Source of the DNA: Catajapyx aquilonaris
Lineage: Eukaryota
Assembly: GCA_000934665.2 (NCBI GenBank)
Contig: KZ538549.1
Span: forward strand, 1 to 62,682
Length of the DNA stretch: 62,682 bases
Reading direction: 5' to 3'
Both the position numbers and the translations under genes were made by a program. Positions 1 through 58,085 of the stretch are shown piece by piece; the first letter of the stretch is position 1; every line of letters begins with the position of its first letter. The notes under the pieces are model-generated. The model ran no database searches and was not told the origin of the DNA. It was given only the letters and a program-made list of their open reading frames with translations.

Positions 1-780
1 CAGGCAGAAGAGACCCGTCGCTGGGTCGTCCGTGTCACTCGTTCGATTTGTAAACAGTGGCAACAATGGAAGCAGTCTCCATGGGCTGATGTTTGAATTG
101 GCCCGCCGGACAGGGTTTCCAGGTAACGCCGCTGCCTCCGCCGCCGGAAAAAAACATTCAGCGACGGCTATTTTGTCCAGCACTGTATGACACGTGACAA
201 ACCCTAGTTTTCTGACTTATCAAAGCATCTGGGGCACCAAGTGCATCAGCAAAAAATGTTTCTTTCGAGTCACTCTTACCATTTTGCAAAAAAACATGCA
301 CTTATTTCATTTACACCCTGTATGAATGTACTTGAGCATCAGTGTAAGGTCCCAAAAAACCAATCCCCTGGAAATACAGCAGGTCAACTGTAACTACTAC
401 TGCTACTTTTCTTCCTCCCCATTCTGATACTGTCATGTTAAATTCTACTTGCCAATTTGTTGATATTTCATCGTCCACAAACAACCCACCTTCTACACTC
501 AGAGAGCAAGCCATTAGAAATGTCCTGCTAACAAACTGGGATAATTTGCGACGTGCCCCCTTAAATTGAGATTGAATGTCAAACTATGTTTTTGTAACTA
601 AGGAAGTGAATAAGTTTTCCCTATTTACCATAAATGTCTCAAGGTGTACTACATAATCCAAAAATCAAATGCCACATCAAACTCTCAATGCTGTGGTATG
701 AGATACTTCATGACTAACTTATTTAACACACACCCTGACAAGCACTAGTTTAAACTGTAACAAGCAACCAAGGAACTTAC

Positions 781-3700
781 TCCCATGCAGTAAGGCTTCG
801 GCCTGTCCACGTTCCACTGCATGAAACCACGAGAAGCTCCTCAAGTCTCTTGGTGTTGAGCCACTTGCTGGTGACACACTTCCACTACCTAAATACACAT
901 ACCCCAAAAAATTCCAATCACTTCTCACAGTACAACAAAAACGTGTGAAAACAAACCAGAATTATTGGGCCTGTGCGGCATTGTCCACGGTCCCTGCCCA
1001 GCATCTCCAAAAGGGACTGAGGGAGTGGAGTCAGGGGTAGTTGGGGCAGAGTTGTGGGTGGAGTTACGCTTGCTATTGCCGATGCTATTTGGTGGAGTAA
1101 AAGGTGGTGGTGGTGGGAGGGGTCGGCGGTTTAATACTGGATGGTCTAAGGAAGGCCGAGAGAGCTTGGATATAGCAGGTGGTGTAGGTGCACTGGACTG
1201 AAAGGGAGCAGATGATGGGGGAACTGATGATGGGGGAGCTGATGATGGGGGTGCAGGCAATTGGACAGGAACAGGAGCAGGACTGGTGGTGGGACCAGGG
1301 GTAGGTGGAAGGGGTCTCTCATGCCCTCTGCTTGGTGACCCTGCTTGTCTTCCTGAAGTGAGGGTAGACAGCTGAGAAGGAGGGCTGATTGCAACGGTCT
1401 CTGAAACAGCGTTACGTCTCACATAATAAAATGTGGGCATGAATTCAACTCTGAGGATCAATGGTGCATACAGCTGTCTCAAATGGTGCAAAATTTTGTT
1501 GAGTGAACTTCCTCTGGATTAAGCATATCTAGTTCTCCTTGTGTAAACAGTGACGTTGCCTGATATGAATTAACCTCATAAATTTCTAGAGGAACAGGTA
1601 TCAACAGCCCATGTCTGTTGCCTGACCTGCTGCATTGACAATAAAAAACCCAACACCTTCCCTATTGTACAATACAATAATAAAATGAGGTAATTATCAT
1701 TATTACATTTCTCTCCCACCAAAACAATGCTTGTCAATTTTCGGATAATTTTCCTGCATTCAGAATGTGTATTATCATAACACTTGCCAGTCTCAGTTTA
1801 GTGTTATTAAGGGCAGGAGGGGAGGATGGGACACTCAAGTCTGATCAACCACACCGGCAGCCACTGGACCACTGGACAATGCTTTGCAGAACATTATTTT
1901 CCCAAGCTTGCCTATACCTCGCCTGAACCTGGCAGACAATCTTTGCCCTAAGGCCAGTCCTCTTTGCCACAGTCTAGCAGCACAATCCACACAAGATGTC
2001 TGAAATCGCTTGATCACACTGCACAGGAGGGTCCCCATCTGTCTTGCGTAGAAACCTGCCCCTTCTGAGGACAGTCGCTCCTCTGACCCTCTGTTGTTGG
2101 CACTCATCTCTCTATCCTGCTCCATTCAACCAATGAGGAAATTTTCTTCATTAAGGGCAGTTGAGCTGCACCCTAAAAAGAGGCCATTGTGCCTATATGT
2201 CAAGGTCCCAACAGTAACTTTTCTCATTCACGACCTTCTGATATCAGCTTACTCCTATCCCTCCTCTCTACTGTAATCTCTTCCCTCTTGTAAAAGATAG
2301 CCTGCCTGCTGCACATTTGCTTGGTTTACCCCTCCCCCCTCCCCCCCTCACAATTGATTCATCTGGTTCACTTTCATATCTGCATAGAAGATATCAGTTT
2401 TCCTGTTGGTTACGTGAAAACAACTGACTCGTAGTCAGTGAATGCGCATTTTTCAATGTAACTCTTTTTGCCCAAAATTCCTCTTATTGGTTTCTAATCA
2501 GGTACTAATCTAGAACAAATGTTGCATCCAATCGTGCTATACTAGACTGACAGAGTGGCCAAGTGCAACAAGTAACCAAGTGACATTGACCAAGTACATT
2601 GATATCTAATCGTACATTTTGTAAACACTCTCTATGTATATATTAGATTTGACGAATTACTAAAAAACGACTGAAAATTTTGCTCTTGCCTTTGCTAGTA
2701 AAAGCCTTGACAACACTTACTCTTAAATCTGACACGAAACTACTTCTATTGGTATTTTTAAGCATGACTTATATTAGAATTCTCCTTGCAGCCAGAGTCA
2801 CCCACATCCTTGACAGTCAGCAGCACAGTAAAAACCACTTCCTGCACAAAAACATGTGGGGGTGATTCACTTAAAAAGGGGCAAGCATCCCACTTATTAG
2901 TGGTAGTTGAGCACTTGAGGCAGGCAGGAAATGAGGGCAGAAAAGACATGGAAGGGGGAGTCGTAATCTTCTAAATTCACCCCCATTCATCAGAAGGAAT
3001 TACAATAACATCCAAGATGTGGTTGAAGGGCAGGGGGTGAGGGGGAGGGCAGGGGGCATTGATCAGCCATATAAAAGGTAAATTTTTCCATTACCTTGCA
3101 GTAACGTTTACTACAAGGCATTGTGGGTTTAAGACTGGCAAGCTATTGCTAGCAGTTGGGTTTTAAATGACTTAACAGTATTTTAGTATTGTATGGATAT
3201 GTGTGTCAGTATAAATCAACTAAGTCACTTACCTTTAAGCTTGTAGAAGAATTGGCTCTGTTTTAGCTCTGACACCACTTGACTCTAAAGATAAAAAGTA
3301 GAGTCAGTGAACCAAAGTAAATTCTTCCAAGGAGTAAATTCAAGTCATCAAATATCTATCCTGCTCTGTAAAATGACATTTTAAAAATGCCTAGTTAGGA
3401 CGCACACACTCATACTTGCACTACATTAATGGTATACACTGACATAAATCTGAGGATCAGTCATTGTGGAGGCACAGTGTGACTGAACTGAAAGGACAGA
3501 CTGGCAATGAACAAAAAGAGATATCTGAACTGAAAGAGGCAAGGAAAATAAATAATCTACCTCTAATCTTCATCACAAATAGGCTACATGCTATTTTCAT
3601 AAACTGAAACTCACACCTTATCTGTTAAGGGGGCGCAGTAGCAAAAATACAGTAAACCAGACAGCTCTGCAGCTCTAGCGGGTGAAGTGAGCCTACCAAG

Positions 3701-6700
3701 TGTTCGCACAACAATATAAGGCATTGTTGCCCCTTGTCAAATGATCCCCATCCCGTTGCCATGATGCCTTTCCCCACTTCTCCTGCCCTACATTTGAACC
3801 TTATAGACTCGCATTGTAGCTTCGCGTCTCTCCCACAACAATTGGCGCCCCTGGCGATGACCAGATGACCACAACAAACTTTTTTATGTATGCAGCGTAG
3901 GAGGATTCAACATGTCTCTGCTTCTGCAGCCGTATGGCCTCAAAAATGGTTCAATCAACACAGAAATTGCACCAAAAAATTGTAGATTATCTGGTGCAAG
4001 GCACCTTGTTAGTATTTTTCCAATTTTCGGCCTAGAAATGACCTTACGGCGAGTTGAAGTGAGAGGAAAACGGAGTTTCCGAAAAGTCCATTTGAATAAA
4101 TCGCGACAAAATCGGACATTCTTCTGCGCCCATATCTCCACAATTCTAATGCAATCATGTTGAGGATGGTACCCCTGTAAAGGCCAAACCTTGCGCAGGG
4201 CACCTAGTTCGTGTTTTCCCGGATTAATGACGTGTTTCGCTACAAATAATTAAGATCCCTACGAAATGCATTCTACCTTATTTTTGCTACTGCACCCCCT
4301 TAAGATCTATCAATTTTTAGCAAAGGGAATTATGCAATAGTGCTCAATGATGCTGCAGTCACATCCTTTCTCCCACCGTTATTTTTCCCCCAGAAGCAGA
4401 AACGTATGAATAAACCCACTAATGGAAAAATCCAAGTTCAAACTTTTTCATGAAGTGAAACTGACTATTTAAAAAAAAACACACACACACATATTGTAAT
4501 TTGCAGAATATTTAGGCTACCTTGTCTTGCCTAGTTGGCAATGGAAGTGCAGGCTTTTGTGGCACCTGCCTCTCAACTTGGGATGACAAGCTTGAAGTTG
4601 AGGAAGAAATAGAGCTTCCTGAACCATGATCATCTTCGTTCGTAACGTGTGAGTCTGGAATCTCATATGGCTCTGTTGGAGTTGGAATTGGTGGCCTCTC
4701 CTCCTACAAATGTGTAACTTTCAACCAACAACAACAAAAAAGAGAACAAGGTTGTTCACAGTGTAAAATACAGAACTTGCATGCTGAGGTATGATCTGGA
4801 GAGAAATAATTGAGGAAGAGAAAGTTAACACAGAAATCAATGCACTTTCAATTTCAGCACCAATTAGCATCAGTTTGTTGTCATGTGTATTTTCCCTCCT
4901 GCAATTGGTTCCCCTTATCATATATCAGGCTGCATGGAGTGTAAACATTTTGTGTAAATAGGGGTCATGTACTGAGCAGGTTCTGTAGAGATATGGGGGA
5001 GGAGATTTTACATTGAGCCAAAGTTAATATAGTACTGTATTTAAAGAGTCACAATATTTAAAACTATTCCATTGACTATTCCTAAGGGTTGCTCGAGTGG
5101 AAAGAGTTTGCAAAGTAAAACCTATGTATCACAGACCCTTGTACAATTTGCCTGTCACGAAACTTATGTTTGGTCCTGATGTCTTCTATGTACTTGTATT
5201 TCTGTCACATACAGTAGAAACAGGCCAACTGCATAAATTTTGCTGATCGTTAAAACACAATAAGCAGGTTTCATGTATGGGTGGTTCAAATGAACTGTAA
5301 AGTGAGGCTAAATCTGCAGTGTCTGGAAATTTAATCTACCATCGCTTTGGGAAATGATAGAGGGATTCTAGGGGATCGCTTTGAGTATAATTATGCAACA
5401 TGGGTCTCTGACGCATAGTCACCAAGATAATTAGCATTAAATAAAAAGTGCATTATCCCAGCTTATAGGTTTTGGATACTGCTTATAACACTTCCATCGC
5501 TGAGGACATTCCCTGCGACACCTAGCAGGATAATAAATTTAAATTAAATTTCATGGTAACACCTTATTTAAATGAAAAAGGTAAGGTCACGTGGAGGGAT
5601 GCATACATGCCAGGATATTTTATACCTTGTGTGAAGCACATTATCTTGGCAACTGTGCGTCAGAGACCCACGTTGCATATCCTTAAAGTGATCGCCTGGA
5701 ACCCCTCCATCATTTCCCAAAGCGATAGTAGATTACATTTCCAAACCCTGAATAGGCATGTGTACAGCCTTACAAGCCTTACAAAATGCATGGGACTGTT
5801 TCAAATCCTCCTTAGTTATCACTGCTACAGATGTTTGTGATGTGGCCATGGTAGGTGATAAGAAATGTAACCATTAGTGGAATAAAGAGGTGACCAAGGC
5901 TCTCAGTCATAAGAAGGTTTACTGAGATATACTGCAGGGTAGTGTCCCTGAAGAGGAGTGTAACTTCTAGAAGAGGGAGACAAGGAGGTTCAATTGTTTG
6001 AAAAAGTAAAAAGAATGTAGAGGTAGCAGAGAGTGAGAGGCTGGAGAAGGCCGGAAAGTGTTCTTGGAGAGCACAAATCATATGGTGTAAGTCTGGCTAT
6101 TTAGAAGATTCTTATCAGCCATCCTCTGCTGCTACCATTTTATGATTCCTCCCCTTATGCCTTCAGAACACTGTTCAGTTCACTTGAACAACACTTAAAT
6201 GATGCTTAAATGTTAAACCATCACGACTTTGTGAAATTCATCACTGAAAGCAATAGTGAACATAATTCTTCAGCATTCTGAGAAGGTTTTGAGTTATTTG
6301 TCACATGAGAAATTGCACAACAACATAGGAAAGTATCAGGCCACCACTGCTATAAACACGTACATGATCCTGGATGGTTTCATACTCGTTGTTGTCTGGA
6401 TCATCTTCAACTGGGTTTTTGAATGGTTTTGGGGGTAAAAGTGTGGTAGGAGGGGGCCTTGGAGTTGTAGGTGGGTTTGGTATCTCATAGGTCCCATCGG
6501 AGTCATCAGATTCCCATGGCTGTGGAATGAATAAACATGCGCACATGCAACATGCGAGAAAGCTCTATTGATGCATATGGATCATTATAAGACTTACCTT
6601 TTGTCTGAATGAGGGTGATCCGGGAAAATCTTTTGGAGGTTTTGGCAATGTGGGGGCTTGGTGGTTGTTGGCCAGGGTTCCTTGCAGTCCTGGGCTTTTT

Positions 6701-9700
6701 GGAATACGTGGATTCATCCGAGCCCCTTGAGGGCGTTGACCAATCAAGATGCGAGGCTTGGTTGGGATTGAAGGCTTTGGTGGTTGCTGATTGAACTTGT
6801 CTCTCAATGATGCCACTGTTGTCTGGAAGTATAAATGAGTATATTTATGTACTGCACAATCACGAAATACTTAAGAGCTTTGCGGCATCTGGTTTACATA
6901 GTGAGTGTAGCAATTTTTCAATTGGTATTTTCAATCGTGCACTTCAACCAGTGCTGAAGTTATTGCAGGCTTTCTTCCTTTCCTGAAACTTAAAAGTCAC
7001 AGCCCGTTTGTCAGTTAATTATCCATCTACATGAAACTTTATGCTTTGTGAATAACTCGAGATCATGTCAATGCACTCCACTGACGCCCCAAGCAAAAAC
7101 CCTGTACATGCAAAAACCATGTATGTTCAGATAAGCAATTAAGCATACCACTGGACTCCCATTTATGTGGCCCACATAATGGTAGACACCTTGTTTCTCT
7201 ATGAGCCTCCGTTGTAAAGTTAGGGACATAGTAAAGCCATGTATGTATATGTACGAGGTAAGGCAGGCACGCAAACTTCAAATGTGATTATCTTGAAATG
7301 ACAAAAACCACACATACAGGGTTTTGCTTGGGGTTGCTTCTCTCCACTACACACATACGAGGTGCTACTCAGGAGTTCGCGAAACGATGCCAATACTTTT
7401 GAACCGCGTATAGTGTGTCGCTTCCACTCTAGGTAGTGTTGCAGGTGACCTTTCTGAACTGCTCAGCCAAGTGGCAGCGTCCGAGGTTGAAGGGATCAGT
7501 TTCTTTGTAGTGTCATGCTTGGTGCGTTCTGCGAGGGTCCCTCTTGGGTTTGTAACATGTGTAGGTTACCTTTTGTTAGAGGTAGGCTATGATTGTCATG
7601 AAATTAATGTGTAATTTTCGACGTCAATTAACAAGAACAAACAAATAAATTTCGACTTTCCAATTGCTAGAATGATGCGGGGCCCTTATAAATTCATATA
7701 AATTATCAGAAAATGGCAGCAAATTTTTTTAGTCGTGCTGGAGCTCTAGTGATAAAGGTACAAGCTTCTGCATAATGTGGAATTGTCATTGTGGTGCTAA
7801 GAGCAATGGTTGGTCCTCCAAGTCAAAGATGAGGCCCCCCTCTCTGGGCCCGGAAATGCAAGGGCCCCACTCAGACTGCTTGTGTTGTTGATTTTTGCTC
7901 ACGCAGCCGCCGAATCTGTCTTTTTAAAAAAAATTGGACCTTGTGCTTGACCGCAAATATCTTACAAATGAAAAATACAAAATATTCATGCAAAATGTAA
8001 TTGGAGACCTTCTTTTTAAATACTGTACATGTAAGGGTGTAACATCTCAGAATGGCTACATTCAGTATAATTCGCTATTTTTATCGGAGAGCTAACAAGT
8101 GGCAATTTTTGATGGCTCTGCGAGATGATCGTTTAATAATAGTGCAATTAAGACAAGAAAAACTCAGGCATCTTGTCTATTTGCGGTGCAAAAAATTCGT
8201 CGATTTCAATGTGAGAGCCTGGGCATTACTTCCCAGCACGATAATTAAGCTATGTATTTCCCGAAAATTACCGAAGCAGTAGTAGTGGAGTGGATATGGT
8301 GTCCGACTGCTAATCGGGAGGTCCTGGAATCAAATCCCGGGGCCGGCAACTCTGACCGTGGTTTTCTGTGGTTTCCCACGGTCCTTCCAGGAAAATTTCG
8401 GAGTTGCTTCCATAATTAATAGGCCACAGCCGCTTCCTTCCGTCCCTATCCTATCCCAAAGAGCACAGTAAAATGAAAAGCAAAGAGTTCCAGGCAAAAC
8501 AAACTTCCCCCTAAAGAGCCGAAAAAGGCTGAAAATGGGGTATGAATTATTATCATCATCATCATCATTATTATTATTCCCCGAAAATTTCTGGCCTGAC
8601 CCAGCTAGATTAGGCCATATTAATTCGCGTCGTCTTCACTCTTGCCTCCTCAAAAAAGGTTATAAATGTAAGTCCAAGACTGTCCTATTGTCTCGCAAAC
8701 AAAGAAATGTAACAGACTTTTTCCAGCTAGGACAAATTAAAACGATATGACAAGTTCTATTATTATGCAGCATACGCTACGTGCCGTAGTTTGGTAATAA
8801 CCCAGGTGAATATCTCATTTTTACTGTATCTAGGACCATGGATTTATCAGTGTTTTGCAATTATTATCCAGGCACACTTCATTAGCACAGATAATCAGGA
8901 GTTCAGTGTATTCCAAAATAACTCCTTGAAACAAGCAGATTAGTGACAAACAATTGAATCACCAAGATGGCACACCTCCCAAGTCCATACGGGACCCTCT
9001 TAGAATAGTGAAAATTACAAGACAAGTGTCCCAAGTCCAGGACATGGAACTGCGGCATCTTGACTACCTATAAGGGGGGGGTCTGTTTCCAACCTTTCCG
9101 ACTGGAGTTGGCATTTTCTGCTTCTTGGACAGCTAACCCGCTGATAAAGCAATTTCAGGAAAATTGACTTGCGAGGTGTTCCCTCTTGGCGATTCAATTG
9201 CTAACTAAAATAGACATTTCAATTGGAACACCCAGCATATCATCCACTGCTGCATTCATGCATATCCTATAATGATGAACTTGATATCACGGGCTGTTTC
9301 CTTTACCAGATCTGCATTTGAGTCTGTCTGTTCTGCAGGGTCCTTCATGAGTTCCTTAAGGGGGCACTACAGTCATCGACCTTCAAAAATTCGGCTTTAT
9401 TTTTATTTTTGAAAAAAATCAAGCGTCACAATAAGCCCGCCGNNNNNNNNNNNNNNNNNNNNNNNNNNNNNNNNNNNNNNNNNNNNNNNNNNNNNNNNNN
9501 NNNNNNNNNNGCCCCCCCCCCCCCCGCCCCCCCACGATACGCCAGTGTCCCCACCTACTCGCTGGCATGAGCGCCATCAGGTGCTGCTCCCGCACAGACA
9601 CGGAGGCACTACGCCGCCGGTCCTGCTGTCAACAGCGCGTATGTGTGACACTAACTTTTTTTAAAAATCGCATTATCGCTCTGTTACATTACCCCTACTT

Positions 9701-12426
9701 TTAACTATAAACACATTTTTCTCAGTTTGCCGGATTTGGACACTGTCGACATCGCCCAGGCCACAAAAATTTAGCTACGGACTTCCCACTTCACCAGATT
9801 TATCCTCAAACATGGCGCTATCCATTGGTCTAAAAGATTTAGCCTGCTCGAACTACTTCTCTTTTAACTTTAATTAAATGCTGTCCCAAAACTGAGTCAT
9901 CTTTCTGAAATAGTAAAAAAAAAATCTAAACGATTTCAAAAATTATAATTCTAGGTCAATGGAAAACTACATGCTCAAGGAAGCCTAAGGTCCAATCTGA
10001 CGCTTGTAGGTTGACCCCAGCGTCCTAAATCATGTCGACAGTGGCCCTGGAGGGCCTGTGACACACGAACGTGATTCAGTTATAGGCGCTAATAGGTCTT
10101 TGACTTATGTACATTCATGAAAATGAAGTCCCAACTTCTTGTCTCTAGTATTTTTTTTTTGCAATTTTTTTTTACAAAACCCTTGATTTTGACTGTAGTG
10201 CCCCCTTAAAAGGTATCACTAATACTGCTTAGATTAGAACATAGAGTCCATATGGCATAATTTCTTCACTAGAATATGACCTAGAGTTCTGGACTGTAGA
10301 ATACCACTAGTTTTATTTATTTATTTATTTTATTTTTTGTACCCCGTGATGACCCTTACAGGTTCTATAGGGGGGTGGTACATCACCATTTCTCAATCAA
10401 TTTTCGCATTTAAAAAAATCTTCACTCCGGTGCAGGGAAACAAGGACATTGGGTAAGGATAGGGATTTTTGGGGAGGGAACATGGGTGCAAGTGCATTGT
10501 CAGAAAAGGGGTCATGTGCTGTTCCCCAGGAGGTTAGGTTCCCAGACACCTCCTTGGTGCAGGTCAGAGACCCTCCTGAAGAAAGTGGAAGGGAACTCCC
10601 AGGCGGGGATCAAACCTGGGACCTTCCACTCAGCAAGCCGAGACGTTACCATCTCAGCCACCACACCTCCCCCAGAATACCACTAGTGTCTAAGATTGTA
10701 TCTAAAGGTTGAATACAAATTCCAAGCCTTTGCTACTGGTAACAAAAGATATAACAGGAGTAATCTCAAATGAGTATGTTTACCATGGTTGTAGCTGATT
10801 GGGTTTCAGACCCCAACTCTTCATCAAATTCTGATGAACTCCATCCACTCTCTTCATCATCACTACTAGGATAAGTTGTGCTGAAAACAGAATTTAATAA
10901 ATGGTGTATTTGAGCAACAAAACAATGCTAATGAGAGAGTAACTTGCCCATTCATGCTCTTTCCTAGGTTTTGGTTGATATCTGTGACCAGTTTTGTGAT
11001 CTTCCTATAATATAAAAGAAACAACAATGTACATAGTTATCTGTCAAGTTAAAAATAACTCACAAATTTATCTTTGCTATCACTTGCACCTTTTAAATCA
11101 GAATCTATATTTGCAAAGTCAATGCAGGAAGGCCTAGCTTTACTCCACATCCTATCCCTTCTGATTACAACATTTCCTCAAGAGTGACCTCACACGCCAA
11201 CGCTAAGTTGAAGAAAAAAAACTACGAACCTTATGTTTTTTATTTTCAACTCCCGTGTCCACCTCAGCAGCTTGTCCTCAGTAAGCTCCTGACAGGAGAA
11301 TTAAGTGAGGGCTCAGACTGTATAATCATATCGTTACACTGTTATATGACTTGGCTGCAAGTCCCTTATCAACCAACTTACAAGGAAAGAATATCCGTTT
11401 ATCTGGTGCTTCCTAAATGCCTCTGCGCAGTCGCTGAGGTCATTCTGAAAAACAATGCAGTACGTTTTTATGGCAGTAGTTGCAATAAATTAACATAAGA
11501 TAACACACGACAAAGAATGGATAAGCATTTGAATCACTATCTACTATTTAAAAAATCGTTTCATTAACCAAACTTTCATTCAATTGGCAGTTACATGCAC
11601 TGCAGTTTGGTAATTTTTGAATTCAACCTTGCCCCCATGACCAGGGCATTCATGAATTGCCATTATCATATCTGTTCCTTTATGTTTCCCCATATCAGTC
11701 ACATTATTTCAGTGCAACCTGATAGCTAGTTTCTTCTTGACAACCCATGCCATCCATGAATGGGCCTATGGCAAAAGGGAACCAACAGGTGGTAATGAGT
11801 ATTATCACATTATTGGAATAAACATCTTAACCTGTCAAATCCTAAATTCTGAGAAATGGCAGTACCTATATGACTGGATCATTATAAGGACCAGTTGCAT
11901 GAATTGATGATAAATCCAGAACAAGTGGTTGATCCATGTTACGTCACATAGGATCCCACAAATAGGCCAAGATTTGACGAATTCAGTAACAATGTTTGTG
12001 CAATATTTACTTTAATACTGGCTTAGTACATGCTATACAAGACATAAATTACAACCTTGCCCATGCAGCTTTCACGATATACTTAGCCCGTACTTTCTCT
12101 GTAAGTTGATATTCTACTCACAATAAATTGTCCTGAGTCAAGCAACATCTAATTAAAACTCACAAGAAAATATGTGCTGATAATTTTGATTGCCATTAAT
12201 ACTCATGAGTAGCCTACTAATTAATATGTCAATTGCAATGCCAGGGCGCAGGCGAGACTTGCAATATATATATAAAAAAAACGGTGTGACTAGCCCAGTA
12301 ACCCTAGACCTCTACTAGAGCAGGGGGGGGTTGTACCTTTTGCAAGAGAGTGATGACCTCATCTTCTCCCCATCCCTTGACATCTTGCGCGCGGGGAAGG
12401 AACCTGCCGGCCGACGAGCCCAACAT
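781..12426 (-). CDS. SLP-76/LCP2- or BLNK-like adaptor (SAM, acidic Tyr motifs, Pro-rich, start of SH2); 3' end lies beyond the window start
   Basis: Phase-consistent exons 12426-12337, 11444-11382, 11288-11230, 11004-10948, 10880-10784, 6822-6598, 6519-6364, 4703-4521, 3284-3233, 1400-957, 888-781 (about 511 codons). N-terminus MLGSSAGRFLPRAQDVKGWGEDEVITLLQKNDLSDCAEAFRKHQINGYSFLELTEDKLLRW...RKITKLVTDINQN is SAM-like. Then ESGWSSSEFDEE, YEIP/YETI/YEIP, a long Pro-rich stretch, and SWFHAVERGQAEALLHG (SH2 start). Confidence 0.85.
3629..4299. mobile_element. Non-autonomous DNA transposon, TTAA target, Kolobok-like
   Basis: 21-bp TIR GGGGGCGCAGTAGCAAAAATA / TATTTTTGCTACTGCACCCCC (1 mismatch); TTAA at 3625-3628 and 4300-4303; purine-purine start argues against piggyBac. 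Confidence 0.8.
5317..5750. mobile_element. Degenerate MITE with about 110-bp inverted arms
   Basis: 5317-5432 (CAGTGTCTGGAAATTTAATCTACCATCGCTTTGGGAAATG...) is an imperfect reverse complement of 5640-5750 (...CATTTCCCAAAGCGATAGTAGATTACATTTCCAAACCCTG); no clear TSD. Confidence 0.65.
7087..7333. repeat. Short inverted-repeat element, possible old MITE
   Basis: CCCCAAGCAAAAACCCTGTA at 7087 versus TACAGGGTTTTGCTTGGGG ending at 7333. Confidence 0.4.
8273..8458 (+). mobile_element. tRNA-derived SINE
   Basis: A-box-like TAGTGGAGTGG (8283) and B-box-like GGAATCAAATCC (8326), followed by a body GTTTTCTGTGGTTTCCC...GGCCACAGCCGCTTCCTTCC resembling insect SINEs. Confidence 0.65.
9360..10205. mobile_element. 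Non-autonomous DNA transposon, TTAA target, Kolobok-like; contains N gap 9443-9510
   Basis: Perfect 16-bp TIR GGGGGCACTACAGTCA / TGACTGTAGTGCCCCC; TTAA at 9356-9359 and 10206-10209. Confidence 0.8.
10312..10673 (-). mobile_element. Full-length tRNA-derived SINE with target-site duplication
   Basis: Minus strand: A box TGGCTGAGATGG, B box GGTTTGATCC, (AAAT)n tail; exact 14-bp TSD AGAATACCACTAGT at 10298-10311 and 10674-10687. Confidence 0.85.
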
Positions 12427-12965
12427 TCGCCCTTCTATTTCGAACACCCTCTGCAGCTGACCACCCAACGTCACAGTCGGCCTTTCGCACTCGGTTTTCC
12501 TGCCTGTGTGTCTGTTTTTTTTTTATCGCGGGAAGTACGCCCGACTCACCCGCCAAGTCGAAACCGCAATCATTTTCTTCACAGACTGATTTTTTTGTTG
12601 CGCTCCATTCGAACGTGCCGTCTGGAAGTCCATCCGAACTTGGCCAGGTGGCACTGCCTACTCGGATATGTAGCGACATCTACCGGATAAAGACACGCCC
12701 ATCGACCAAATATCAATCGAAATAACGATTTATAATATTTGCGGCAAATAACAAGCTGAGAGGCGAGTTATCCATTTTGCATAAATAACCAAATAACCTG
12801 CAAAATTTTGACGGAGAGGCAGGGTTGCCAAGCGGTGGCTTCGTGTGTTGGCTACACTGCACCGGCAGCACAGGAAGAAGAGTAGCGTGCTTGCGTCGTT
12901 CGGCTGTCGTTCTGGTGGATCTAGATCTTCTTTGTCCCTCTTAGTCCGACTGAATCCCCTGCAAG
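12427..12965. promoter_or_regulatory. Probable bidirectional promoter and 5' UTRs (adaptor gene / SmG)
   Basis: Divergent ATGs about 540 bp apart; region is visibly CpG-rich compared with flanking introns. Confidence 0.6.
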
Positions 12966-14956
12966 ATGAGCAAGGCGCATCCTCCAGAGCTGAAGAAGTA
13001 AGCAGAGTTCATGTGCATGCAAACCAAATGCTAAACCTTCCAATTTTTTTCTGTTTCAGGTTTATGGACAAGAAGCTGTCCCGTGAGTTGCACTCCGCCT
13101 AGGGCCGTCTGATGGACAGTGCCTAGAAAGCGCCTGCAATGGTTTATTCGAAAACTGGGCAATTGTGTGGGTTAATTGGGGAATGGATGTAGAAAATCGG
13201 TGTGGACAAATCATTACACTGTTATTAGAGGAAGAGTCTATTTTCCACGGGAAAATTACCAAGTAGCGGTATACCCCAGAAGGTGTGCTACCAAGTTAAC
13301 AAGAACCAGAGTTTTGTAGTGAACTGGAGGCTTGTTATTATGAGCCAAGAAGTTAGCAACAAATGGGGTTCGAGAATTGGCTTCTTGAGAGCGTGGGAAC
13401 ACACTGTAATAGTGTGCGTAGGCATTTGTCCAGGTAGAACATGCAGCTTTTCTGTATTCGTTGGTCAGCCAATCTCCACATTTAGCGAACATTCATTTGA
13501 TTCGCAAGGAAAGTGCTTAGGGTCAACCCATGGGAGTGTTTTTTTTATCAAATTTGAGGGCGAAAAGCTGGTGGGAAGGCCCAAGTACGGGGAGCTGAAC
13601 TAACCCTGTTTCTAAGTCTACTGTACAAATTATGCCATTATTCTTTGGTAATACAGTAACTGATATGCAGAGGGAGGATCTATAGGATCATGTAAAGCCG
13701 CTTTTACATGTGAGCTATTTGATCGGTGATGTTGCAGTGATGTGCGTTGCTGAGCAATGTAAGCAGTGCTTTGGGCTGAAAGTAGCAATCGTGTTTTAAG
13801 AAGGGAAGGCATGAGCGATGACATACATCGCTGTAATTAGCTGCGTATCCAGGGTGTCAAAGACAAACTGAACGAACTGAACCGAACCGAACAATGAGGG
13901 AGTAGCACACAGTGGTGTATTCGGGTGGTAATACTATGATGGCACGTGGTGACATGAAGGCACCTGATTGTTTCACTGATTGTTTACGTTTGATTCAAAG
14001 TTCCCGTCGTCCTTTGTTCGGGCAATGCTGTAGCGATGCACGTCACTGGCTTGTAAACACGTCCGCGATGTTTAAGCGCTATCCCTTGTGAACGACATCA
14101 GAACCTCTACAACTCACATCACTCAGGAATGACATTGCTGCAACATTACTGATCAAATCACTCGCATGTAAACTTGGCTTTATACTGTGCACAGCCTGGA
14201 AAAACAGGTCATTTAGATTGAAGTACATTAAGGTAGGGGAATTAGGTTAGTGTAATCACTGAATAATAATGTAAGATTTGTGATCAGCTAAGGAGTACAT
14301 TATGGAATGACATGCAGGTATTGCGTTATTCATGTTCTACTGCAAAACTCAAAAACAGCACTGAAATGAAAGAAACAAAATATAATAGCTGACTTGTGAA
14401 AGTGTTGTCAGTTCACTATGTCTGAAATGTCACTTTGTCACTGTCTTCAAGCTTTAAATAATTTAAAGCTTGAAAACAGTGACAAACTACCTTAATGTAC
14501 TTCAATCTAAATGACCTGTTTTTCCAGGCTGTGCACAGTATAAAGCCAAGTTTACATGCGAGCGATTTGATCAGTGATGTTGCAATCCAATCCAATCCAG
14601 CACAAAGCCCACAAGGTTCCCCAAGTACAATAATTGTACTTGGGGAACCTCGTGGGCTTTGTGTGGAGAATAAGCCTCTTGTAAAACATGCAGGTTTCAG
14701 TAATTGTTGCAGGCACTTCCTAGGCTTCTGAGGTATGGTATGAAGGAGTACGAAGCTCATGGCATTTCTTCCTTTTGCAGTTAAGCTGAATGGCGGAAGG
14801 TATGTGGTAGGGATCCTGCGTGGTTTTGACCCATTCATGAACCTGGTGATGGATGAGACCATTGAGGAGTGCAAGGATGGAACCAAGAACAACATTGGAA
14901 TGGTTGTCATTCGGGGGAACAGCATCATCATGCTTGAAGCACTTGATCGGATATGA
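12966..14956 (+). CDS. SNRPG: Small nuclear ribonucleoprotein G (SmG), 76 aa
   Basis: Exons 12966-12997, 13060-13082, 14781-14956 give [82 protein letters not shown] at 15175. Confidence 0.97.
13695..14180. mobile_element. MITE in SmG intron 2
   Basis: Imperfect TIR of about 43 bp AAGCCGCTTTTACATGTGAGCTATTTGATCGGTGATGTTGCAG / CTGCAACATTACTGATCAAATCACTCGCATGTAAACTTGGCTT, flanked by TA on both sides. Confidence 0.65.
14139..14584. repeat. 98-bp inverted duplication (14139-14236 / 14487-14584)
   Basis: Arms are reverse complements with 2 mismatches; 250-bp spacer. Confidence 0.9.
14601..14663. repeat. Near-perfect 63-bp palindrome
   Basis: CACAAAGCCCACAAGGTTCCCCAAGTACAAT-A-ATTGTACTTGGGGAACCTCGTGGGCTTTGTG; 1 mismatch, 1-nt centre. 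Confidence 0.9.
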
Positions 14957-16839: not shown

Positions 16840-19800
16840 ATGGCCGAAGAGGAGAAGAGCCCAGGATCTGACATGGACAACCCGCACACAAAGAACGGAA
16901 ACTTCATCTGCGGTGTCGTCGAAGGTAATTGGGAACACGGCCGGGTGGACATGCCCAGACTGTGTGGTGCCATCCCAACCGTGTTGGGGGAACACACATT
17001 AATCAATGGGAACATAGGAGCACCCGATGAAAGTTATTTAGTGTGGCCTGGCTGGTCATGGCTTTAGTTGGCCATTAGGCTGGTCACTCTTGGCTAACCA
17101 AGCCAATGACTGGGCTGTACTGGAGTGGCAATCAGGGAACAGTCATATCTGTTTGGATAGTTGTAATTGAATTATTAGCTAGCCGTTTTAATGATGACGT
17201 AATTGACAAATTGGTCATTTCTTTGTTTCATATGAGATGACCACTTTTCCTTGCAGGTTTCTATGGTCGACCGTGGACCACAGAGCAGCGCAAAGATCTG
17301 TTCCAAAAGATGAAGAAGTGGGGCATGGATTCTTACCTGTATGCTCCAAAGGATGATTACAAGCATCGTGCTTATTGGCGAGAGTTGTACACTGTGGAGG
17401 AGGCAGAGCACCTCACAAGTCTTGTTGCTGCAGCTAGAGAGTGCAATGTTACCTTCTACTATGCCTTGTCACCAGGAATCGATATTACCTACTCCAGCTC
17501 CAAGGAGATTGCTTGCCTCAAGAGGAAGCTGGAGCAGGTGGGCCAGTTCGGATGCACTGCCTTTGCTCTGCTGTTTGATGACATTGAATCCGAGATGTCT
17601 GAGGCTGACAAGGAAGTTTTCCAGTCCTTTGCGCATGCTCAGGTAAGAACTGTCTGAGCTAGTGAGCATGGATAGTATTTTTATATTGGTCAATCATATT
17701 TGCTTGAGCGTATCTACTTGTTGAGGCGAAAAAGGATTGCTGATGGTAGTTTCTAAGGACAAATAGCTGCCTTACAGCATTGGCTTGCCTTTGTGTTAAA
17801 ATACCTTTGCCTTGTGTAGATGTCTGTAATAAATTAATTACATAGCTTCCTTCAAGACCATGTCAAATATAATTTTATCAATGTGTAAAGCTCTAGCAGT
17901 TTTGGGTAGACGTAAAAAAGTATAAAATGTAGAGAGAAGTAGAGGGATTGGTTGCATTAGGCATCTGGGGGATTAAGTTATTGACCTCATTAGTCCAAAG
18001 GTTAATATATGCAAGGGTATCAGATTTGCTGTGCTTTCTGATAGTGGAGCACTTGTTAGCTATACGGCCAATAGATAACTAAAAATATTTATGACTACAA
18101 CCAAATGAAGATAATGATATATATATTTTAAGAAATTATGTGGCAGTAGCAGGATGTTCCAGTAATATGCAGGGCAGTTCATTATCTGAGTGCACAGTTC
18201 AAAAGGGTAATAATGGGGAAAATGTTATGTGTATTATTATGTACTCCAGCAACCAGTATACAAAAGCACATGCACACACCCTTCCCCTCCCACACATGTA
18301 CTATGCTATTCTGTATAGTGGTATTTCATGGAGGTGAAACTGCTTGTCCAAATACCTAACAAAAGCATCATTACAGGTGTCTGTGACGAATGAGGTGTAC
18401 CAGCATGTGGGCCAGCCAAAGTTTTTGTTCTGCCCCACCCAATACTGCGAGGTGCGAGCCATTCCAAATGTGTCCAACTCGGAGTACCTTAATACCATTG
18501 GAGCTAAGTTGGCTCCAGGAATTGATGTAATGTGGACTGGACCAAAAGTGATTTCCAAAAGCCTCACCCCAGAATCAGTAGAGGATATCACTGAAGTGCT
18601 GCGAAGGCCACCAGTGATTTGGGATAATCTTCATGCAAATGATTATGACCAGAAACGCTTGTACTTGGGTCCTTATTCTGGTCGAACCACTGACTTGATC
18701 CCAAGGCTGCGAGGTGTTTTGCTGAACCCAAACTGCGAATATGGTGCTAACTTTGTTGCCATTCACACCCTGGCTCAGTGGAGCCGATGCAATCTGGATG
18801 ACCGTAGAGAAGTGAATGATTCGGTTAGTGCTGACATTAAACTTGAGACAGAGGGTGAGGATGGCAGTGTTGAGGATGTACCTGCAACACTACCTGTTAC
18901 AACGTACCATCCACGACGTGCATTGCGTAATGCAATTCATGACTGGCTTGGTGAATTTAAACGTACAAAAGCAGTCTGGGGTCCCATTCAGAGGCCACAG
19001 ATTGTGGCAGCAGCTCCGGTGCCAGTGATGCCATCAGTCAACACGTGTATGACAGTGACAGCAACAACAACAACTGCATCAGGTGGCGCCATCACAGCAA
19101 GTGTTGGAGCCATGCTACTTCCAATGCCAGTAGTGCCGGCAGTTTTGGCTGCTGGTGGAGTGCAGGCAGGCGGGCCAACCTCACCAACAGTGATGATAAA
19201 TGCTAATCAACTACATGTCTTGGCAGAGGTAGGACAACCATTTTGCAAACCATTTTGATTTGTATCTGAAATGTATGCTTATAGCTTATTCATAGATGTG
19301 GGCTTTAATAAGTTCTGCACATCAGTTCTTGGCACATGGAAATAGTTTATGCATGAAAACTGGAGATTTGAGTGTATATGAGAACAGGACTGTCCTTGTT
19401 GAACTCAGGAGTTAGTTTTTAAAGCCTTGATATCGAGGACCAAAGAAATATACCAGTTAATAACATCCCACCTGACTTTGGAAAGTGCCATTTGTGCCAC
19501 TTAGGGCTTGCCAATAGAGCACTCAGGAAATAAAAGTATAAATATTTCTGAAAATCCTTTTGCAATTGGAGGTGAATGGACTATGTACTGTACCTGAATT
19601 TTTTCAAAATCTTGCCGTGAGGACAGCTGTTAAAATGAAATGAAACATTGTCATTAAAATTGAATCTTGAGTAGTGATGACTCCCTGGGTTGATGTAGGG
19701 AGCCATCAAGGCTCAAGATTAAATTGAAATTAGCATGTGGAAAAATATTTTGCATCCAATATATTACATGTCTGGTGTCTTAAGGATACACTCTCTTTAA

Positions 19801-22800
19801 GAGAGTAATTCACAGCTCTGGAGGTTACAATATATTGTCTGCCCTTCATGAAAAGTTGGTCATGAGAGAAAATGATACACCTGGCCCTCCCAAGTTTTTC
19901 TATGTATATGCCAACATGTAACAGTACGAGCAATAGTCGCACATACACATACATTCAGAAGGACTTGGGAGTGGTGCTCACAAGTTAGTGTCCCAGTTTA
20001 AAATCACATTAAATTTTTTAACATAAATATAAACTTTTTAACGTGGTGCACATGAACCAATTGTTCACACAATGTCATTGTAATAGACAGTTTTGTGGAG
20101 TGCATGCCTAGTCTTGTGTGCATGCCTAATTCACCTGTGACTGGGGTACTCCAATTGAAAAGTCCATAGTGGTTTGCAACTCTATTTCACTTCTAGCAGG
20201 TTACTTGGCGTTGCCTGGGTATGTTGGGGTGCTGGTAAAGGTAGGGGTACATATATATTAGGGAGTTTGTTTGTAAAATTTGTGTTCCTTGAGATGCCTT
20301 AAAATAGGCCTTATAAGTAACAATAAGCCAAAGTTTGTCACTATCTGTGATAGATTACCTGCTTCTCTTATAGCGTATAGTCGACACAGATATGCTGATT
20401 GGATGTGTAAAATGAGGAATACGGACAGAGTTGACCCAGGAAAAGACTGCACAGCCATGTGTTTTTCCTCCAGAATATCAGACCCCTTCACCCCCAACCC
20501 CACGTCACACCACTACCTTGTTCCATATGTTTGCCCTGAAGAACTTTAGAAAATAATAACGTATACAGATGCCTGGTGGGCAATTTTGTTTTCAGCACTG
20601 TGAGTAATTTTTGTAAAAAAATTTAAAAAATATATATATTTATTTGTGTCTGGAAGTCTGCTTTCAAATCCCACAAAATCCCGGAATGACCATATGATAC
20701 GAACTCACATGAGGTGGCCAATTAGCTAAATTGGCGGATGCATTGAATTTACGGCGATGGTACGTGTAAAAAAGAGAGGCGGAGGATATACGGTATAGAT
20801 GCAATGTAAATGGAAAACCCTTGATGGTTTAATTTGCTAGGTATTGTTGTATAATAAGGGCATTTCCATGGGATTGCTAACTTGGAAAAAGAGTAATTAT
20901 TGTTGATTTATTGATATTATGTTAATTGTTGAGGCCCGAGTAGTGAGAAGATTCGGGAGTATGCGTGTTGTGGGAGTTAGGCTCATTTTCGCATGCTGGA
21001 ACATGCACCATTAAATTCCTCGAAAAAAGTAACCCCCGAAGAGCTCGTTTAAGGTGGTGTAGGGGCATTCCCCTGGATTTCTGTAGCAAAGGAACAAACA
21101 AACAACTCCACAAACAAACGAACTAAAATATAGATTAAGATCTGCTTATTACCATATTTTAGAACATAGAGCACCATGCCAGTATCAATAGGGGGTGACA
21201 AGTTGGCTGTTATCCAGAGTACATGAATACAGAAGCAGCAGCTATTGTTTAATATTATTTCACTGACCAGGAATCTACTTTCTCTTAGGCTAGTGCAGAA
21301 GCACTACCTCTTCAGACAGGTCCTGTTCCAGTGATGAATTCCCTTGTGGCTGAGAACAAGGTGGTTTGCAATGAGACCACTGGTGTTGGCATCACTCCAG
21401 AGGGCGAAAGGAGTGTATCTCTTGACCTGCCTGCTGTCGCAGCCAGCACCCCTGCCATTGCCAGTCCCTCTGAATCTACCACTGCCCCCGTTCAAGAACC
21501 AATGGACTGCAATCCAACACCAAATAGCTCACCTCCAAGAGCAAAAACAACTGTTGAAGATGTTCCTATGATGGAGCAAAGTGAGTTTATTGGAGATGAT
21601 GATAATCTCGACCATATGAATGCACACTGTTGTATTCAGTTTCCTGCAATTGTAACCAGAAGCATCCCTGAATTTTTTTAAACAAATAATGATGCTGTGA
21701 TTTCTTGATTGACATAATGATACCTGTTGCATCAGAAGACAAAAAATTACATTTTGAAATAATTAAAATTTAAGTGCCCAATTGCCACAAAAAGTCGGAT
21801 TAGCTAACATGAATACATTTGCTTGGTAGATGAGGTGAAGAATGGATTGGAGGTCGATACAGGTGTGAACTCTGAAGCTGCTGCCACCACTCCAACATCT
21901 TCGAGTTCTTCATCTGGCATGCTGGTGGAATCTGCTGATGGGGAGGAGGATGGAAGCAGGGAAGAAGGGGTGGTGGGGGAAGAGGAAGGGGGAGTTGATG
22001 GGAGGGAGGGGTCAGGTAGGAAGGAGGAGGAGGAACTGACCATAGAGGATCTTGCTCTTCTCTGTGACCTCTTCTACTTACCTTTTGAGCATGGGGCTCA
22101 AGGAATGCAGCTGCTTCAAGAGTTCAACTGGCTTAAGGTTAATGCACAGCTTGTAATTGGCTATGGTGGACCTACTGATGTGGATTCCTCCAAGCCAGAG
22201 GTGGGTTGAAAAATGTGCATTCAATCAATTACAGTGATCACTATAACAGTATTGTAATGATGAAATCAATATAATTCGCGCATTTTCTTATGTATTTAAA
22301 ATGTAATGACTTGCTGCTTATGTCAATAATCTAACGGTTGGGCTGTGTATGTTGCATCAATTTTTACATGTTTAAAATTTTCTCAAGTACACAGTGAACT
22401 ATACAGGGTGTCTATTGTAACTCTGCAAAGACTTTCAGGGATAATAGAGGGGACCAAGACAAGTATTTTTGACATAGGAACCCGTGTCCGGAAACGTCAT
22501 CTAGAGGGGGTTCACAGACAAGGAACGGGTGAGCTCAGACGCGTCACGCGGGAGGCGCTAGGGGAGCGGCCTGTTTTGTTGATAGATGGCGCTCGGATAG
22601 TAACCAACGATGCAATGTGTCATAACCTGACAACAGCAGAGCCATCTAGCAACTAAAGTTTGCCTCCTAGGAGACGCGCGGATAGTCAACAGCGGTTCTG
22701 TTGTTGCCATGTTATGGCGTATCGTGCTGTTGTTTTCTTACATAAACTGGCAACAACTGCGCGCCATCTATCAACAAAACAGTCCGCTCGACTTGCGCCT

Positions 22801-28065: not shown

Positions 28066-29189
<1,124 letters not shown>

Positions 29190-47931: not shown

Positions 47932-51099
<3,168 letters not shown>

Positions 51100-57853: not shown

Positions 57854-58085
57854 GAAATGAAAAAGTAATATTACGTGTAAGCAGTATAAATGTCCTCAAT
57901 TTTTCATCTGTACATATTCATTCACATGACTGTAAATAATGCATAATATAATATGTTGTACGTTTACTTCTCTACCTTCTATTTTCTTAAATATGAGTAA
58001 CCTCTACAGGATAAAAAAACACTCAACTGGGAGATAATTTTGCTATCTTATTGAAGGAGGTATTTGAGAAAGAGAATTTGATTAT

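Follow-up and report, generated by a model that had tools for sequence, protein, structure and literature searches.

A gene on the minus strand of Catajapyx aquilonaris contig KZ538549.1 almost certainly belongs, judged by its encoded domains, to the SLP-76/BLNK family of adaptor proteins, which in vertebrates pass on tyrosine-kinase signals inside T and B cells. The window, that is the whole 62,682 nucleotide stretch analysed, holds its first eleven exons; with a twelfth from an overlapping contig the predicted protein has 606 amino acids. Its layout is a SAM domain, an acidic tryptophan word, a proline-rich block, three acidic-context tyrosines, a second proline-rich stretch and a C-terminal SH2 domain. 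The gene is an ordinary member of an already known, widely annotated family. It is probably a co-orthologue of the whole vertebrate set of paralogues, and not just of LCP2. We consider it likely that it is the single arthropod representative of SLP-76/BLNK, a non-catalytic scaffold working as proposed below. The find itself is minor, as equivalents are annotated in arthropods, molluscs, annelids, a priapulid, a nemertean and echinoderms. What it adds is a gene model supported by transcripts, together with a map of the family's motifs.

Gene structure and transcript evidence

Translated under the splice model from 12426 to 781 of the window, the eleven minus-strand exons join with matching phases into a single stop-free frame (table 1), as an earlier note on this DNA had proposed. 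Random same-size pieces drawn from the region gave an open frame in 0 of 20000 cases. An in-frame stop lies 32 codons 5' of the ATG at 12426, and a spliced contig starting at 12502 gives the 5' UTR a minimum length of 76 nt. Nine of the introns among exons 1–11 are GT-AG and one is GC-AG (10947-10881). The first four follow coding bases 90, 153, 212 and 269, in phases 0, 0, 2 and 2; we take LCP2 to share these four phases and a 63-nt second exon. Stop-to-stop frames of at least 80 amino acids contain exons 6, 7, 10 and 11 only, so the gene is indeed largely hidden from the open reading frame track. No Pfam family was found in exons 6–8. The second proline-rich stretch covers residues 296-487 (23% Pro).

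Table 1. Features of the gene in the window (positions numbered on the forward strand).
Feature	Position	Strand	Description
Exon 1, coding part	12337..12426	-	ATG at 12426; codons 1-30; SAM start
Exon 2	11382..11444	-	63 nt; SAM core; Pfam SAM_2 E 0.2 for the exon alone
Exon 3	11230..11288	-	59 nt; SAM
Exon 4	10948..11004	-	57 nt; final SAM helix
GC-AG intron	10881..10947	-	67 nt; joint 10880/10948; + strand ends CT..GC
Exon 5	10784..10880	-	acidic, Ser-rich; W-x(1-3)-[DE]-F-[DE] word at 10843-10823
Exon 6	6598..6822	-	first Pro-rich block, basic; residues 123-197, 20% Pro
Exon 7	6364..6519	-	Tyr208 YEIP 6489-6478; Tyr243 YETI 6384-6373; acidic context
Exon 8	4521..4703	-	Tyr262 YEIP 4667-4656; candidate RxxK 4544-4521
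Exon 9	3233..3284	-	52 nt
Exon 10	957..1400	-	main Pro-rich block; R-P-L-P-P-x-P class I SH3 ligands 1317-1297 and 1125-1105
Exon 11	781..888	-	SH2 first part; WFH at 829-821, helix A
Intron 11 start	1..780	-	exon 12 beyond the window, on C305

All ten introns (10/10) are seen as joints in contigs of a public run, X1, with the predicted lengths of 68, 1832, 1236, 1660, 78, 3961, 67, 225, 93 and 892. X1 is a single run of unrecorded type and tissue, possibly from the same source as the assembly, and is taken as RNA because its contigs carry splice joints. Overlapping X1 contigs, none full-length, cover the mRNA. One spans 12502 to exon 6 and so joins the SAM exons with the proline-rich exon, bearing out a connection that the earlier note had made from the genomic letters. 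A second runs from exon 8 to exon 11 and continues for 407 letters, and exon 7 is connected via joints 6519/6598 and 4702/6363. A shorter exon 3 (end 11263) is ruled out by the joint 11229/11230 in spliced contigs. GT donors for exon 4 would break the phase and are ruled out; a spliced contig shows the GC donor in use.

The SH2 domain, expected to be completed past the window edge, is completed there: exon 12, which holds the SH2 remainder and the stop codon, is found beyond the window, at G000:C305:2000-2286 (+). C305 overlaps the window at 184-1133. It is regarded as the same locus because the differences are few and a spliced contig carries its letters, at both exonic differing sites (1017, 1036); a paralogue is ruled out at 5 differences in 434 bases. 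We infer the exon 11–12 joint, which was not directly read, from the 407 extra letters and the C305 alleles.

Domains and family placement

The SAM domain occupies residues 8-86, split across exons 1–4; once joined, it reaches 84.6 bits with a profile built from 7 relatives. Searched against the PDB, the same 7-row profile matches SAM domains only, including LCP2 SAM 2eap at 48.7 bits (positions 2-78), beside SARM1 at 49.7 and Sfmbt at 49.0. For P0032, the second-best SAM-matching relative, LCP2 2eap is the best PDB SAM (E 0.002 vs 0.04). The SH2 domain scores 34.6 bits with Pfam SH2 (cut-off 21). BLNK SH2 2eo6 is the top PDB match both for the SH2 exon (E 2.7e-8; next 1.5e-4) and for a 19-row SH2 profile (89 bits; next 64). 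Arginines of the phosphotyrosine pocket, whose roles there we presume, are retained.

Among 150 SH2 relatives, 29 match the gene's first 125 residues as well, and SAM, acidic tryptophan word and BLNK-type SH2 recur jointly from priapulid to sea urchin. Relatives with the SAM...SH2 layout, from sea spiders to sea urchins, are automatically named BLNK-, LCP2- or SH2D6-like; such a name came from 11 of 30 cluster look-ups, and other SH2 families were named in none. The nearest atlas neighbours of the priapulid relative are SAM+SH2 clusters of arthropods and molluscs, followed by LCP2 and BLNK of chordates; a search started from the priapulid protein ranks tandem-SH2 proteins above BLNK. SH3BP2 has an N-terminal PH domain; the N-terminus here is SAM, and no PH domain was found in 75 longer relatives (0/75), nor was a kinase, phosphatase or GEF family (0/75). 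An atlas search with half the SH2 returned generic SH2 clusters only, the SH2 exon as query in a word-based protein search gave 0/78 candidates (a weak blank), and NCBIfam gave 0/4.

In a 27-row SH2 tree, a hand-picked subset of invertebrates only, the gene is placed among mandibulates with support 90/92. A quick SH2 tree, also of invertebrates only and with 34 of 166 candidate rows excluded for short SH2 cover, puts an SH2 of the same genome (C671), which we take to be SHB-like, on a long branch outside the 132-row ingroup (SH-aLRT 93); that ingroup was gathered by likeness to this gene's SH2, and its monophyly is partly circular. Domain matches, tree and splice joints together uphold the earlier reading of an arthropod SLP-76/BLNK family member carrying SAM, acidic and tyrosine motifs, a proline-rich region and a C-terminal SH2 on a single transcript.

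Linear motifs and their conservation

Motifs were counted in 40 relatives and compared with shuffles. The relatives are not independent (many insects, several Hymenoptera). The shuffles scatter proline clusters and form a lenient null, under which PxxPxR too is enriched (31/40 vs 11.7). The best-conserved linear motif is the class I SH3 ligand R-x-L-P-x-x-P, in 35/40 relatives (shuffles 1.0), and the acidic tryptophan word W-x(1-3)-[DE]-F-[DE] occurs in 29/40 (shuffles 0.1); both patterns were picked after the consensus was seen. The gene's two RPLPP-x-P copies are both retained in its closest relative, P0001. They lie 68 and 132 residues ahead of the SH2, a distance of at most 45 in 31/40 relatives. 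Y-E-x-I/V is present in 31/40 and Y-[DE]-x-P in 13/40 (shuffles 5.9, maximum 11); P0032, P0045 and Daphnia P0013, among these 40, have no Y-[DE] motif. Three acidic-context tyrosines were reached by 3/2000 shuffles of the gene's linker. Conservation of the tryptophan word, Y-E-x-I/V and R-x-L-P-x-x-P points to a docking scaffold for a Src-type kinase.

The motifs named in the earlier note are all where it placed them: the GWSS-acidic word at residues 102-109, YEIP at 208, YETI at 243, YEIP at 262 and PLPTRQDK at 303-310. Its proposal of an SLP-76 order holds for the domains and fails for the tyrosines, the first of which stands about 100 residues past the tryptophan word, after a proline-rich block, and none of which is YESP or YEPP. 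Its proposal of PLPTRQDK as a Gads-type RxxK site was dropped. The Gads-binding consensus is PX(V/I)(D/N)RXXKP in the available part of PMC10453029, and PLPTRQDK has neither the closing proline nor (V/I)(D/N). Such motifs also stay at chance level in the 40 relatives: RxxK in 32/40 (29.6 in shuffles), PxxxRxxK in 10/40 (6.5, maximum 13), PxxxRxxKP in 2/40 (1.0) and absent from this gene, and RxxKP without excess over shuffles. PxxxRxxK arises in 278/2000 shuffles of the gene's linker. This pattern suggests that the old connections of the family are the acidic tryptophan word, the kinase-docking tyrosine and proline motifs, SAM and SH2, and that the Gads RxxK is not among them.

Proposed mechanism and alternatives

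On sequence grounds we lean towards a kinase-docking scaffold that would operate as follows. (i) The SH2 domain would recruit the protein to a phosphotyrosine of an activated receptor or membrane adaptor. (ii) The R-P-L-P-P-x-P ligands near the SH2 would bind the SH3 domain of a tyrosine kinase in the cytoplasm, with a Src-family member the likeliest; the SH3 of Tec/Btk29A, Abl or PLC-gamma are alternatives. A class I ligand does not specify its SH3 partner. (iii) The docked kinase, or Shark, would phosphorylate all three tyrosines. (iv) pY-E-T-I would then retain a Src-type SH2, and both pY-E-I-P sites would attract pY-x-x-P readers (Nck/Dock, Crk, Vav, Btk29A). (v) SAM would cluster the complexes, turning on PLC-gamma/calcium and Rho/Rac-actin outputs. 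The genome has what we take, from their domain layouts, to be candidate partners: Src-type kinases, Shark-like, Btk29A-like, Grb2-like, Crk-like and Nck-like genes, a Vav-like DH and three PLC-gamma loci. Precedents are SLP-76, with SAM self-association and docking of Vav, Nck and Itk (available part of PMC3795252), and p130Cas, where RPLPSPP and YDYVHL form a docking pair for Src SH3 and SH2 (available part of PMC8542790). A mainly hemocyte or immune role for the scaffold is plausible, at somewhat less than an even chance.

The strongest alternative, possible though doubtful, is an adaptor of general use in development or adhesion, employed like p130Cas or Gab/DOS below receptor tyrosine kinases or integrins; its immune role would then be a specialisation of vertebrates. 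Such an adaptor fits the Src-type SH3 and SH2 ligands, which are conserved and similar to the Src-binding domain of p130Cas. It also fits the occurrence of the family throughout bilaterians and in eggs, a relative being transcribed in those of a sea star (PMC11593052, in the part available). Drosophila CG15529 is also a candidate apoptosis modifier in the part of PMC6893197 available. The studied chordate members are nevertheless tied to immune tissues. This adaptor would work by the mechanism of the preferred scaffold, in a different tissue.

A true LCP2 counterpart, recruited by Gads or Grb2 through RxxK in hemocytes, downstream of Syk/Shark and with the vertebrate wiring kept, is unlikely. 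The SAM domain is shared with SLP-76 and not with BLNK, which lacks one, in keeping with the family content of BLNK clusters. The three acidic tyrosines exceed most linker shuffles, and the genome has Shark-like and Grb2-like genes. But RxxK-type motifs remain at shuffle level, the tyrosines stand apart from the acidic tryptophan word and lack YESP or YEPP, and a head-to-head putative SmG housekeeping gene weakly hints at broad expression. From the literature, CG15529 has been called a BLNK orthologue (PMC6893197, in part) and is one of the immune-process genes that virus infection is listed as raising in flies (available portion of PMC5915338), and amphioxus slp76 peaks in intestine and gill (PMC5431462); the sea-star egg transcripts argue the other way.

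Membership of a different SH2 adaptor family, such as SH3BP2 or SHB, or a SAM+SH2 layout independent of SLP-76, is very improbable. In its favour, both domains are promiscuous, LCP2 is not picked out by the SAM profile and the tree ingroup was collected by SH2 likeness. Against it, BLNK leads the PDB matches by 25 bits, the genome's SHB-like SH2 sits in the outgroup, PH domains are absent from the longer relatives searched and the three-part combination recurs across phyla.

Neighbouring genes and significance

A chimeric paralogue of DH-PH plus SH2 lies directly downstream, on the other contig; a word-based protein search with its DH exon gave 0/100, a weak blank. Vav loss as the reason for the GEF fusion was dropped, as a DH on C534 is, by its motif, presumably Vav-like. 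The head-to-head gene, which we take to be SmG, starts 541 bases from this gene's start.

A broader reading is improbable. The SLP-76 scaffold would be older than lymphocytes as a Src docking platform, with R-x-L-P-x-x-P and Y-E-x-I/V conserved and the Gads site lacking. In arthropod hemocytes it would be the missing adaptor that links the Draper pathway, in which an ITAM-type phagocytic receptor works through Src and Shark, to PLC-gamma and Rho-GEF outputs. In this lineage a copy of its Tyr/Pro/SH2 tail would have been joined to a Dbs-type DH-PH. If the reading is true, the fusion rebuilt the SLP-76 and Vav adaptor–GEF pair of T cells in one chain. Under the same reading the fused DH-PH would be without the N-terminal regulatory part.

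The motif map lets a pre-lymphocyte role of the SLP-76 scaffold be put to the test through Drosophila CG15529 or with hemocytes of crustaceans. No functional study of the family in protostomes was found in the literature searched, which leaves most subscription journals outside; SH2 census papers there may list arthropod members.

Comparison with known systems

The p130Cas Src-binding domain is alike in working only: an RPLP-x-x-P class I ligand and a phosphotyrosine site serve one Src kinase (available part of PMC8542790). p130Cas is an unrelated protein, and here the tyrosines lie more than 100 residues before the proline motif and binding is predicted only.

The Gads-type RxxKP of SLP-76 has no supported counterpart here; to our knowledge, LAT and Gads are restricted to chordates. 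The LCP2 SAM 2eap is matched along its length. In SLP-76/LCP2, as far as PMC3795252 is available, an N-terminal SAM, three acidic tyrosines, a proline-rich middle and a C-terminal SH2 are likewise present, with YESP/YESP/YEPP in place of the YEIP/YETI/YEIP seen here, and with tyrosine motifs 35-67 residues past the SAM rather than 122-176. Unlike those of SLP-76, the motifs here stand within the proline-rich region, behind a 75-residue proline-rich exon. BLNK/SLP-65 offers the best structural relative of the SH2 (2eo6), but its clusters have no SAM family, whereas this protein has SAM.

Amphioxus slp76 is also an invertebrate SAM-PRR-SH2 protein of similar length (642 aa), with Gads, Itk and human PLC-gamma1 as binding partners; its WW domain and DYEPPP Itk motif are not seen in this gene (PMC5431462). 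That paper makes no mention of arthropods, insects, Drosophila or protostomes.

Closest are the BLNK-like and LCP2-like proteins of arthropods (Limulus XP_022255875.1, Nymphon KAG1653395.1, Periplaneta XP_069687981.1, Daphnia XP_032778894.2), with which Drosophila CG15529 is counted by literature description, not by sequence. They share a C-terminal SH2 of BLNK type, about 45-59% identical across the last exon, an N-terminal SAM if full-length, the acidic tryptophan word, Y-E-x-I/V and RPLPP before the SH2. Many insect members have Y-E-x-I types only, whereas this gene has two YEIP and a YETI. A further difference from the other arthropod members is the adjacent RhoGEF, to which a second copy of this gene's tail is fused.

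Structure and completion of the adaptor gene

The eleven-exon, minus-strand adaptor gene at window 781-12426 is real and is backed by transcript contigs. Phases agree across all ten introns (nine GT-AG, one GC-AG), and the exons, joined by coordinates, are stop-free; 0 of 20000 random concatenations of the same size drawn from the adaptor-gene region gave an open frame. X1, a single public run of unrecorded type, may share its source with the assembly. Aligned to window 1-12700, its contigs skip all ten predicted introns exactly, bearing out the earlier reading of eleven exons in frame, with none of the contigs spanning the full message. X1 contig 5 starts at 12502 and covers exons 1-6, and so places the SAM and Pro-rich exons on one molecule, a junction set beforehand as a test. 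Contig 1 spans exons 8-11 and continues for another 407 letters, and two X1 joints link exon 7 to the rest of the gene.

The introns hold repeats. High-copy short repeats in intron 5 (window 8290-8530 and 10390-10670; X1 mean depth up to 8553) look like tRNA-derived SINEs. Paired inverted-looking ends, found by eye at 5340-5420/5690-5750, 3620-3660/4260-4300 and 9370/10190-10210, are probably MITE-type elements. An X1 joint skips window 3674-4274.

The window is an entire contig whose left end overlaps a second contig, C305, in reverse; the assembly break falls inside the adaptor gene. The overlap (window 184-1133 against C305:1-935) matches at 95%, with indels. Its ungapped part, 434 bases long, contains 5 differences. 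Two differences are exonic (1017 and 1036, in exon 10) and amino-acid-changing, and the spliced X1 contig has the C305 letter at both; C305 thus carries the alternative haplotype of this locus. Going left of the window finished the SH2, as the earlier note had proposed, through exon 12, which gives a protein of 606 aa by an exon 11-12 joint predicted rather than read directly.

Features of the window and of contig C305
Feature	Location	Strand	Remarks
GC-AG intron after exon 4	window 10881-10947	-	67 nt; confirmed by spliced contig
Acidic Trp word	window 10843-10823	-	family pattern W-x(1-3)-[DE]-F-[DE]
Exon 12	C305:2000-2286	+	phase 1; finishes SH2; ends in stop
Chimeric gene	C305 (stretch L003) 4469-8852	+	same strand as adaptor gene; 2.2 kb behind its stop
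WDR11	C305:12518-19887 (stretch L004:2518-9887)		comes after chimeric gene; Pfam
Short spliced ORF start	window 12967-13090	+	11 protein letters, then second exon
O-GlcNAcase-type gene	window 17241-25965	+	Pfam NAGidase in two exons; C-terminal part diverged
Trypsin-like protease	window 28066-29189	+	Pfam
ARMH3	window 29700-35883	-	Pfam
ABC-2 half transporter	window 39058-43200	-	Pfam
C2H2 zinc-finger gene	window 48983-51114	-	Pfam
Two sugar-transporter (MFS) genes	window 55766-62456	+	in tandem

Family identity

The gene belongs to the SLP-76 family, which is known and widely auto-annotated; the original assignment to it is upheld by the SH2 match to BLNK, the SAM and the names of relatives. 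The last exon scores above the Pfam SH2 cut-off, and in the PDB it finds the BLNK SH2 first (E 2.7e-8; runner-up 1.5e-4). A 19-row profile places BLNK first among 231 PDB matches by 25 bits; with a priapulid protein as query, BLNK is outranked by tandem-SH2 proteins. Residues 8-86 score 84.6 bits against a SAM profile built from 7 relatives, which in the PDB matches the full length of the LCP2 SAM and gives the SARM1 and Sfmbt SAMs scores just as high. The best SAM match of one relative, P0032, is that of LCP2. Another, P0076 (Dimorphilus), has two BLNK-type SH2 domains.

An exhaustive search with an E-value limit of 0.001 returned 421 proteins; among the 150 matches listed, 29 share similarity with residues 1-125 of the gene product as well. 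A Pfam scan of 75 longer relatives found SH2 in all and, at E up to 0.01, SAM in 24; none showed a PH, kinase or RhoGEF family. BLNK-, LCP2- or SH2D6-like names are carried by 11 of 30 clusters looked up (Nymphon, Limulus (two), Daphnia, Periplaneta, Bacillus, Ischnura, Gryllus, Priapulus, Haliotis and Strongylocentrotus) and by 6 of 17 profile-search matches. None of the 30 clusters bears the name of another SH2 family, the remainder being unnamed or uncharacterised. In the Atlas, the priapulid relative lies nearest to SAM+SH2 clusters of arthropods and molluscs, followed by LCP2 and BLNK of chordates.

In a quick SH2 tree, with an ingroup picked by likeness, one branch (SH-aLRT 93) separates the family from ten further SH2 domains encoded in this genome. 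In a second tree the gene falls within a mandibulate group (support 90/92) without joining its insect, springtail or malacostracan subgroups, and has no narrower placement; both trees are of non-vertebrate members. Vertebrates have four paralogues of the family. With one invertebrate gene against these four, co-orthology, rather than orthology to LCP2 alone, is the default, and the adaptor protein, as judged from its sequence, lacks two features specific to LCP2.

Linker motifs

Motifs were counted in 40 of 166 proteins, with SAM and SH2 more than 100 residues apart, against 200 shuffles per linker; the 40 share kinship, many being insects. The acidic word and the tyrosines of the earlier note stand. 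W-x(1-3)-[DE]-F-[DE], kept from priapulid to insects, occurs in 29/40 (shuffles 0.1), and Y-E-x-[IV] in 31/40 (2.2); Y-[DE]-x-P reaches 13/40 (5.9, maximum 11), and three relatives lack Y-[DE] motifs. The acidic Trp word is not known to have a binding partner. The strongest motif, R-x-L-P-x-x-P, had been missed: it is present in 35/40 (shuffles 1.0) and, counted from the listing, lies at most 45 residues ahead of the SH2 in 31. The Trp and RPLP patterns were taken from the consensus before counting, and shuffles understate proline motifs (PxxPxR 31/40 against 11.7). The gene itself carries the Trp word, YETI, two YEIP, two RPLPP-x-P and one PxxxRxxK.

The Gads-binding site proposed at PLPTRQDK is rejected, its pattern being at shuffle level: RxxK 32/40 against 29.6, PxxxRxxK 10/40 against 6.5 (maximum 13) and PxxxRxxKP 2/40 against 1.0. 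PxxxRxxK also arises in 278 of 2000 shuffles of the gene's own linker.

Neighbouring genes

Behind the adaptor gene lies a chimeric gene of eight exons with GT-AG introns and a 703-aa open frame, its 5' end uncertain and its linking splice predicted. It encodes DH and PH domains (Pfam), one YEPE tyrosine, a Pro/Ser-rich block and an SH2. This SH2 is 54% identical to that of the adaptor gene, is split by an intron of the same place and phase and, on a long branch, groups with the adaptor gene and its closest relative (75/91); it is a duplicate of the adaptor SH2. Exon by exon, the DH-PH part shows 42-59% identity to a gene on contig C27 (Sec14-like, spectrin-like, DH, PH, SH3), read as Dbl/Dbs type from its layout, and shares three intron positions with it. 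pS is 0.62-0.90, near or at saturation, and pN 0.27-0.35; these values indicate an old chimera maintained by purifying selection.

The short ORF, which resembles the snRNP protein SmG, lies 541 bases from the ATG of the adaptor gene, in head-to-head orientation; the arrangement suggests a shared promoter. The protease, ARMH3, ABC-2 and zinc-finger neighbours are ordinary, and none of the four is immune-specific.

Proposed mechanism and partners

Phosphorylated Y-E-x-I is a Src-type SH2 ligand, and pY-x-x-P is bound by SH2 domains of Nck, Crk, Vav and Tec. The simplest model has five steps. (i) The adaptor would be recruited via its SH2. (ii) A Src-type (or Tec, Abl) kinase would be captured through its SH3. 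(iii) The three adaptor tyrosines would be phosphorylated. (iv) Actin and PLC-gamma effectors would then be recruited. (v) The SAM may cluster the adaptor, as in SLP-76.

Partner searches of this genome give lower bounds. Judged by domain layout, presumptive partners include Src-type, Shark-like (C635) and Btk29A-like (C113) kinases, Grb2-, Crk- and Nck-like adaptors, and a Vav-like DH on C534. Two loci are presumably Fer/Fes-like SH2-kinases (C5444, C313). At least three separate loci (C519, C537, C456), haplotype duplicates possibly among them, are taken to be PLC-gamma-like; this likely effector of the adaptor may have expanded in the lineage.

Comparison with known systems

An invertebrate SLP-76 has already been described. 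Amphioxus slp76 (SAM-WW-PRR-SH2) binds human PLC-gamma1 and two amphioxus proteins, Gads and Itk, and its level peaks in intestine and gill (PMC5431462). That paper does not mention arthropods, insects, Drosophila or protostomes. Sea-star eggs hold a BLNK-like SAM+SH2 transcript (PMC11593052), and lamprey BLNK rises after LPS (PMC4850452). Drosophila CG15529 appears as the BLNK orthologue in an apoptosis-modifier screen (PMC6893197) and is listed among genes raised under Nora virus infection (PMC5915338). A literature search, with most subscription journals outside its scope, turned up no work on the function of a protostome member.

In outline, the adaptor protein would work like SLP-76, whose SAM clustering is established and whose tyrosines are used by Vav, Nck and Itk (PMC3795252); Vav is recruited by both SLP-76 and BLNK (PMC6562523). 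An immune role for the adaptor protein is possible. The order of parts, which had been thought to match, differs. In SLP-76, Tyr113, 128 and 145 lie between the SAM (1-78) and the Pro-rich region (PMC3795252), whereas here a 75-residue Pro-rich exon lies between the acidic word and Tyr208. R-x-L-P-x-x-P fits the class I SH3 consensus +xXPxXP (PMC10453029), and it resembles RPLPSPP of p130Cas, a Src SH3 site paired with a Src SH2 site (PMC8542790).
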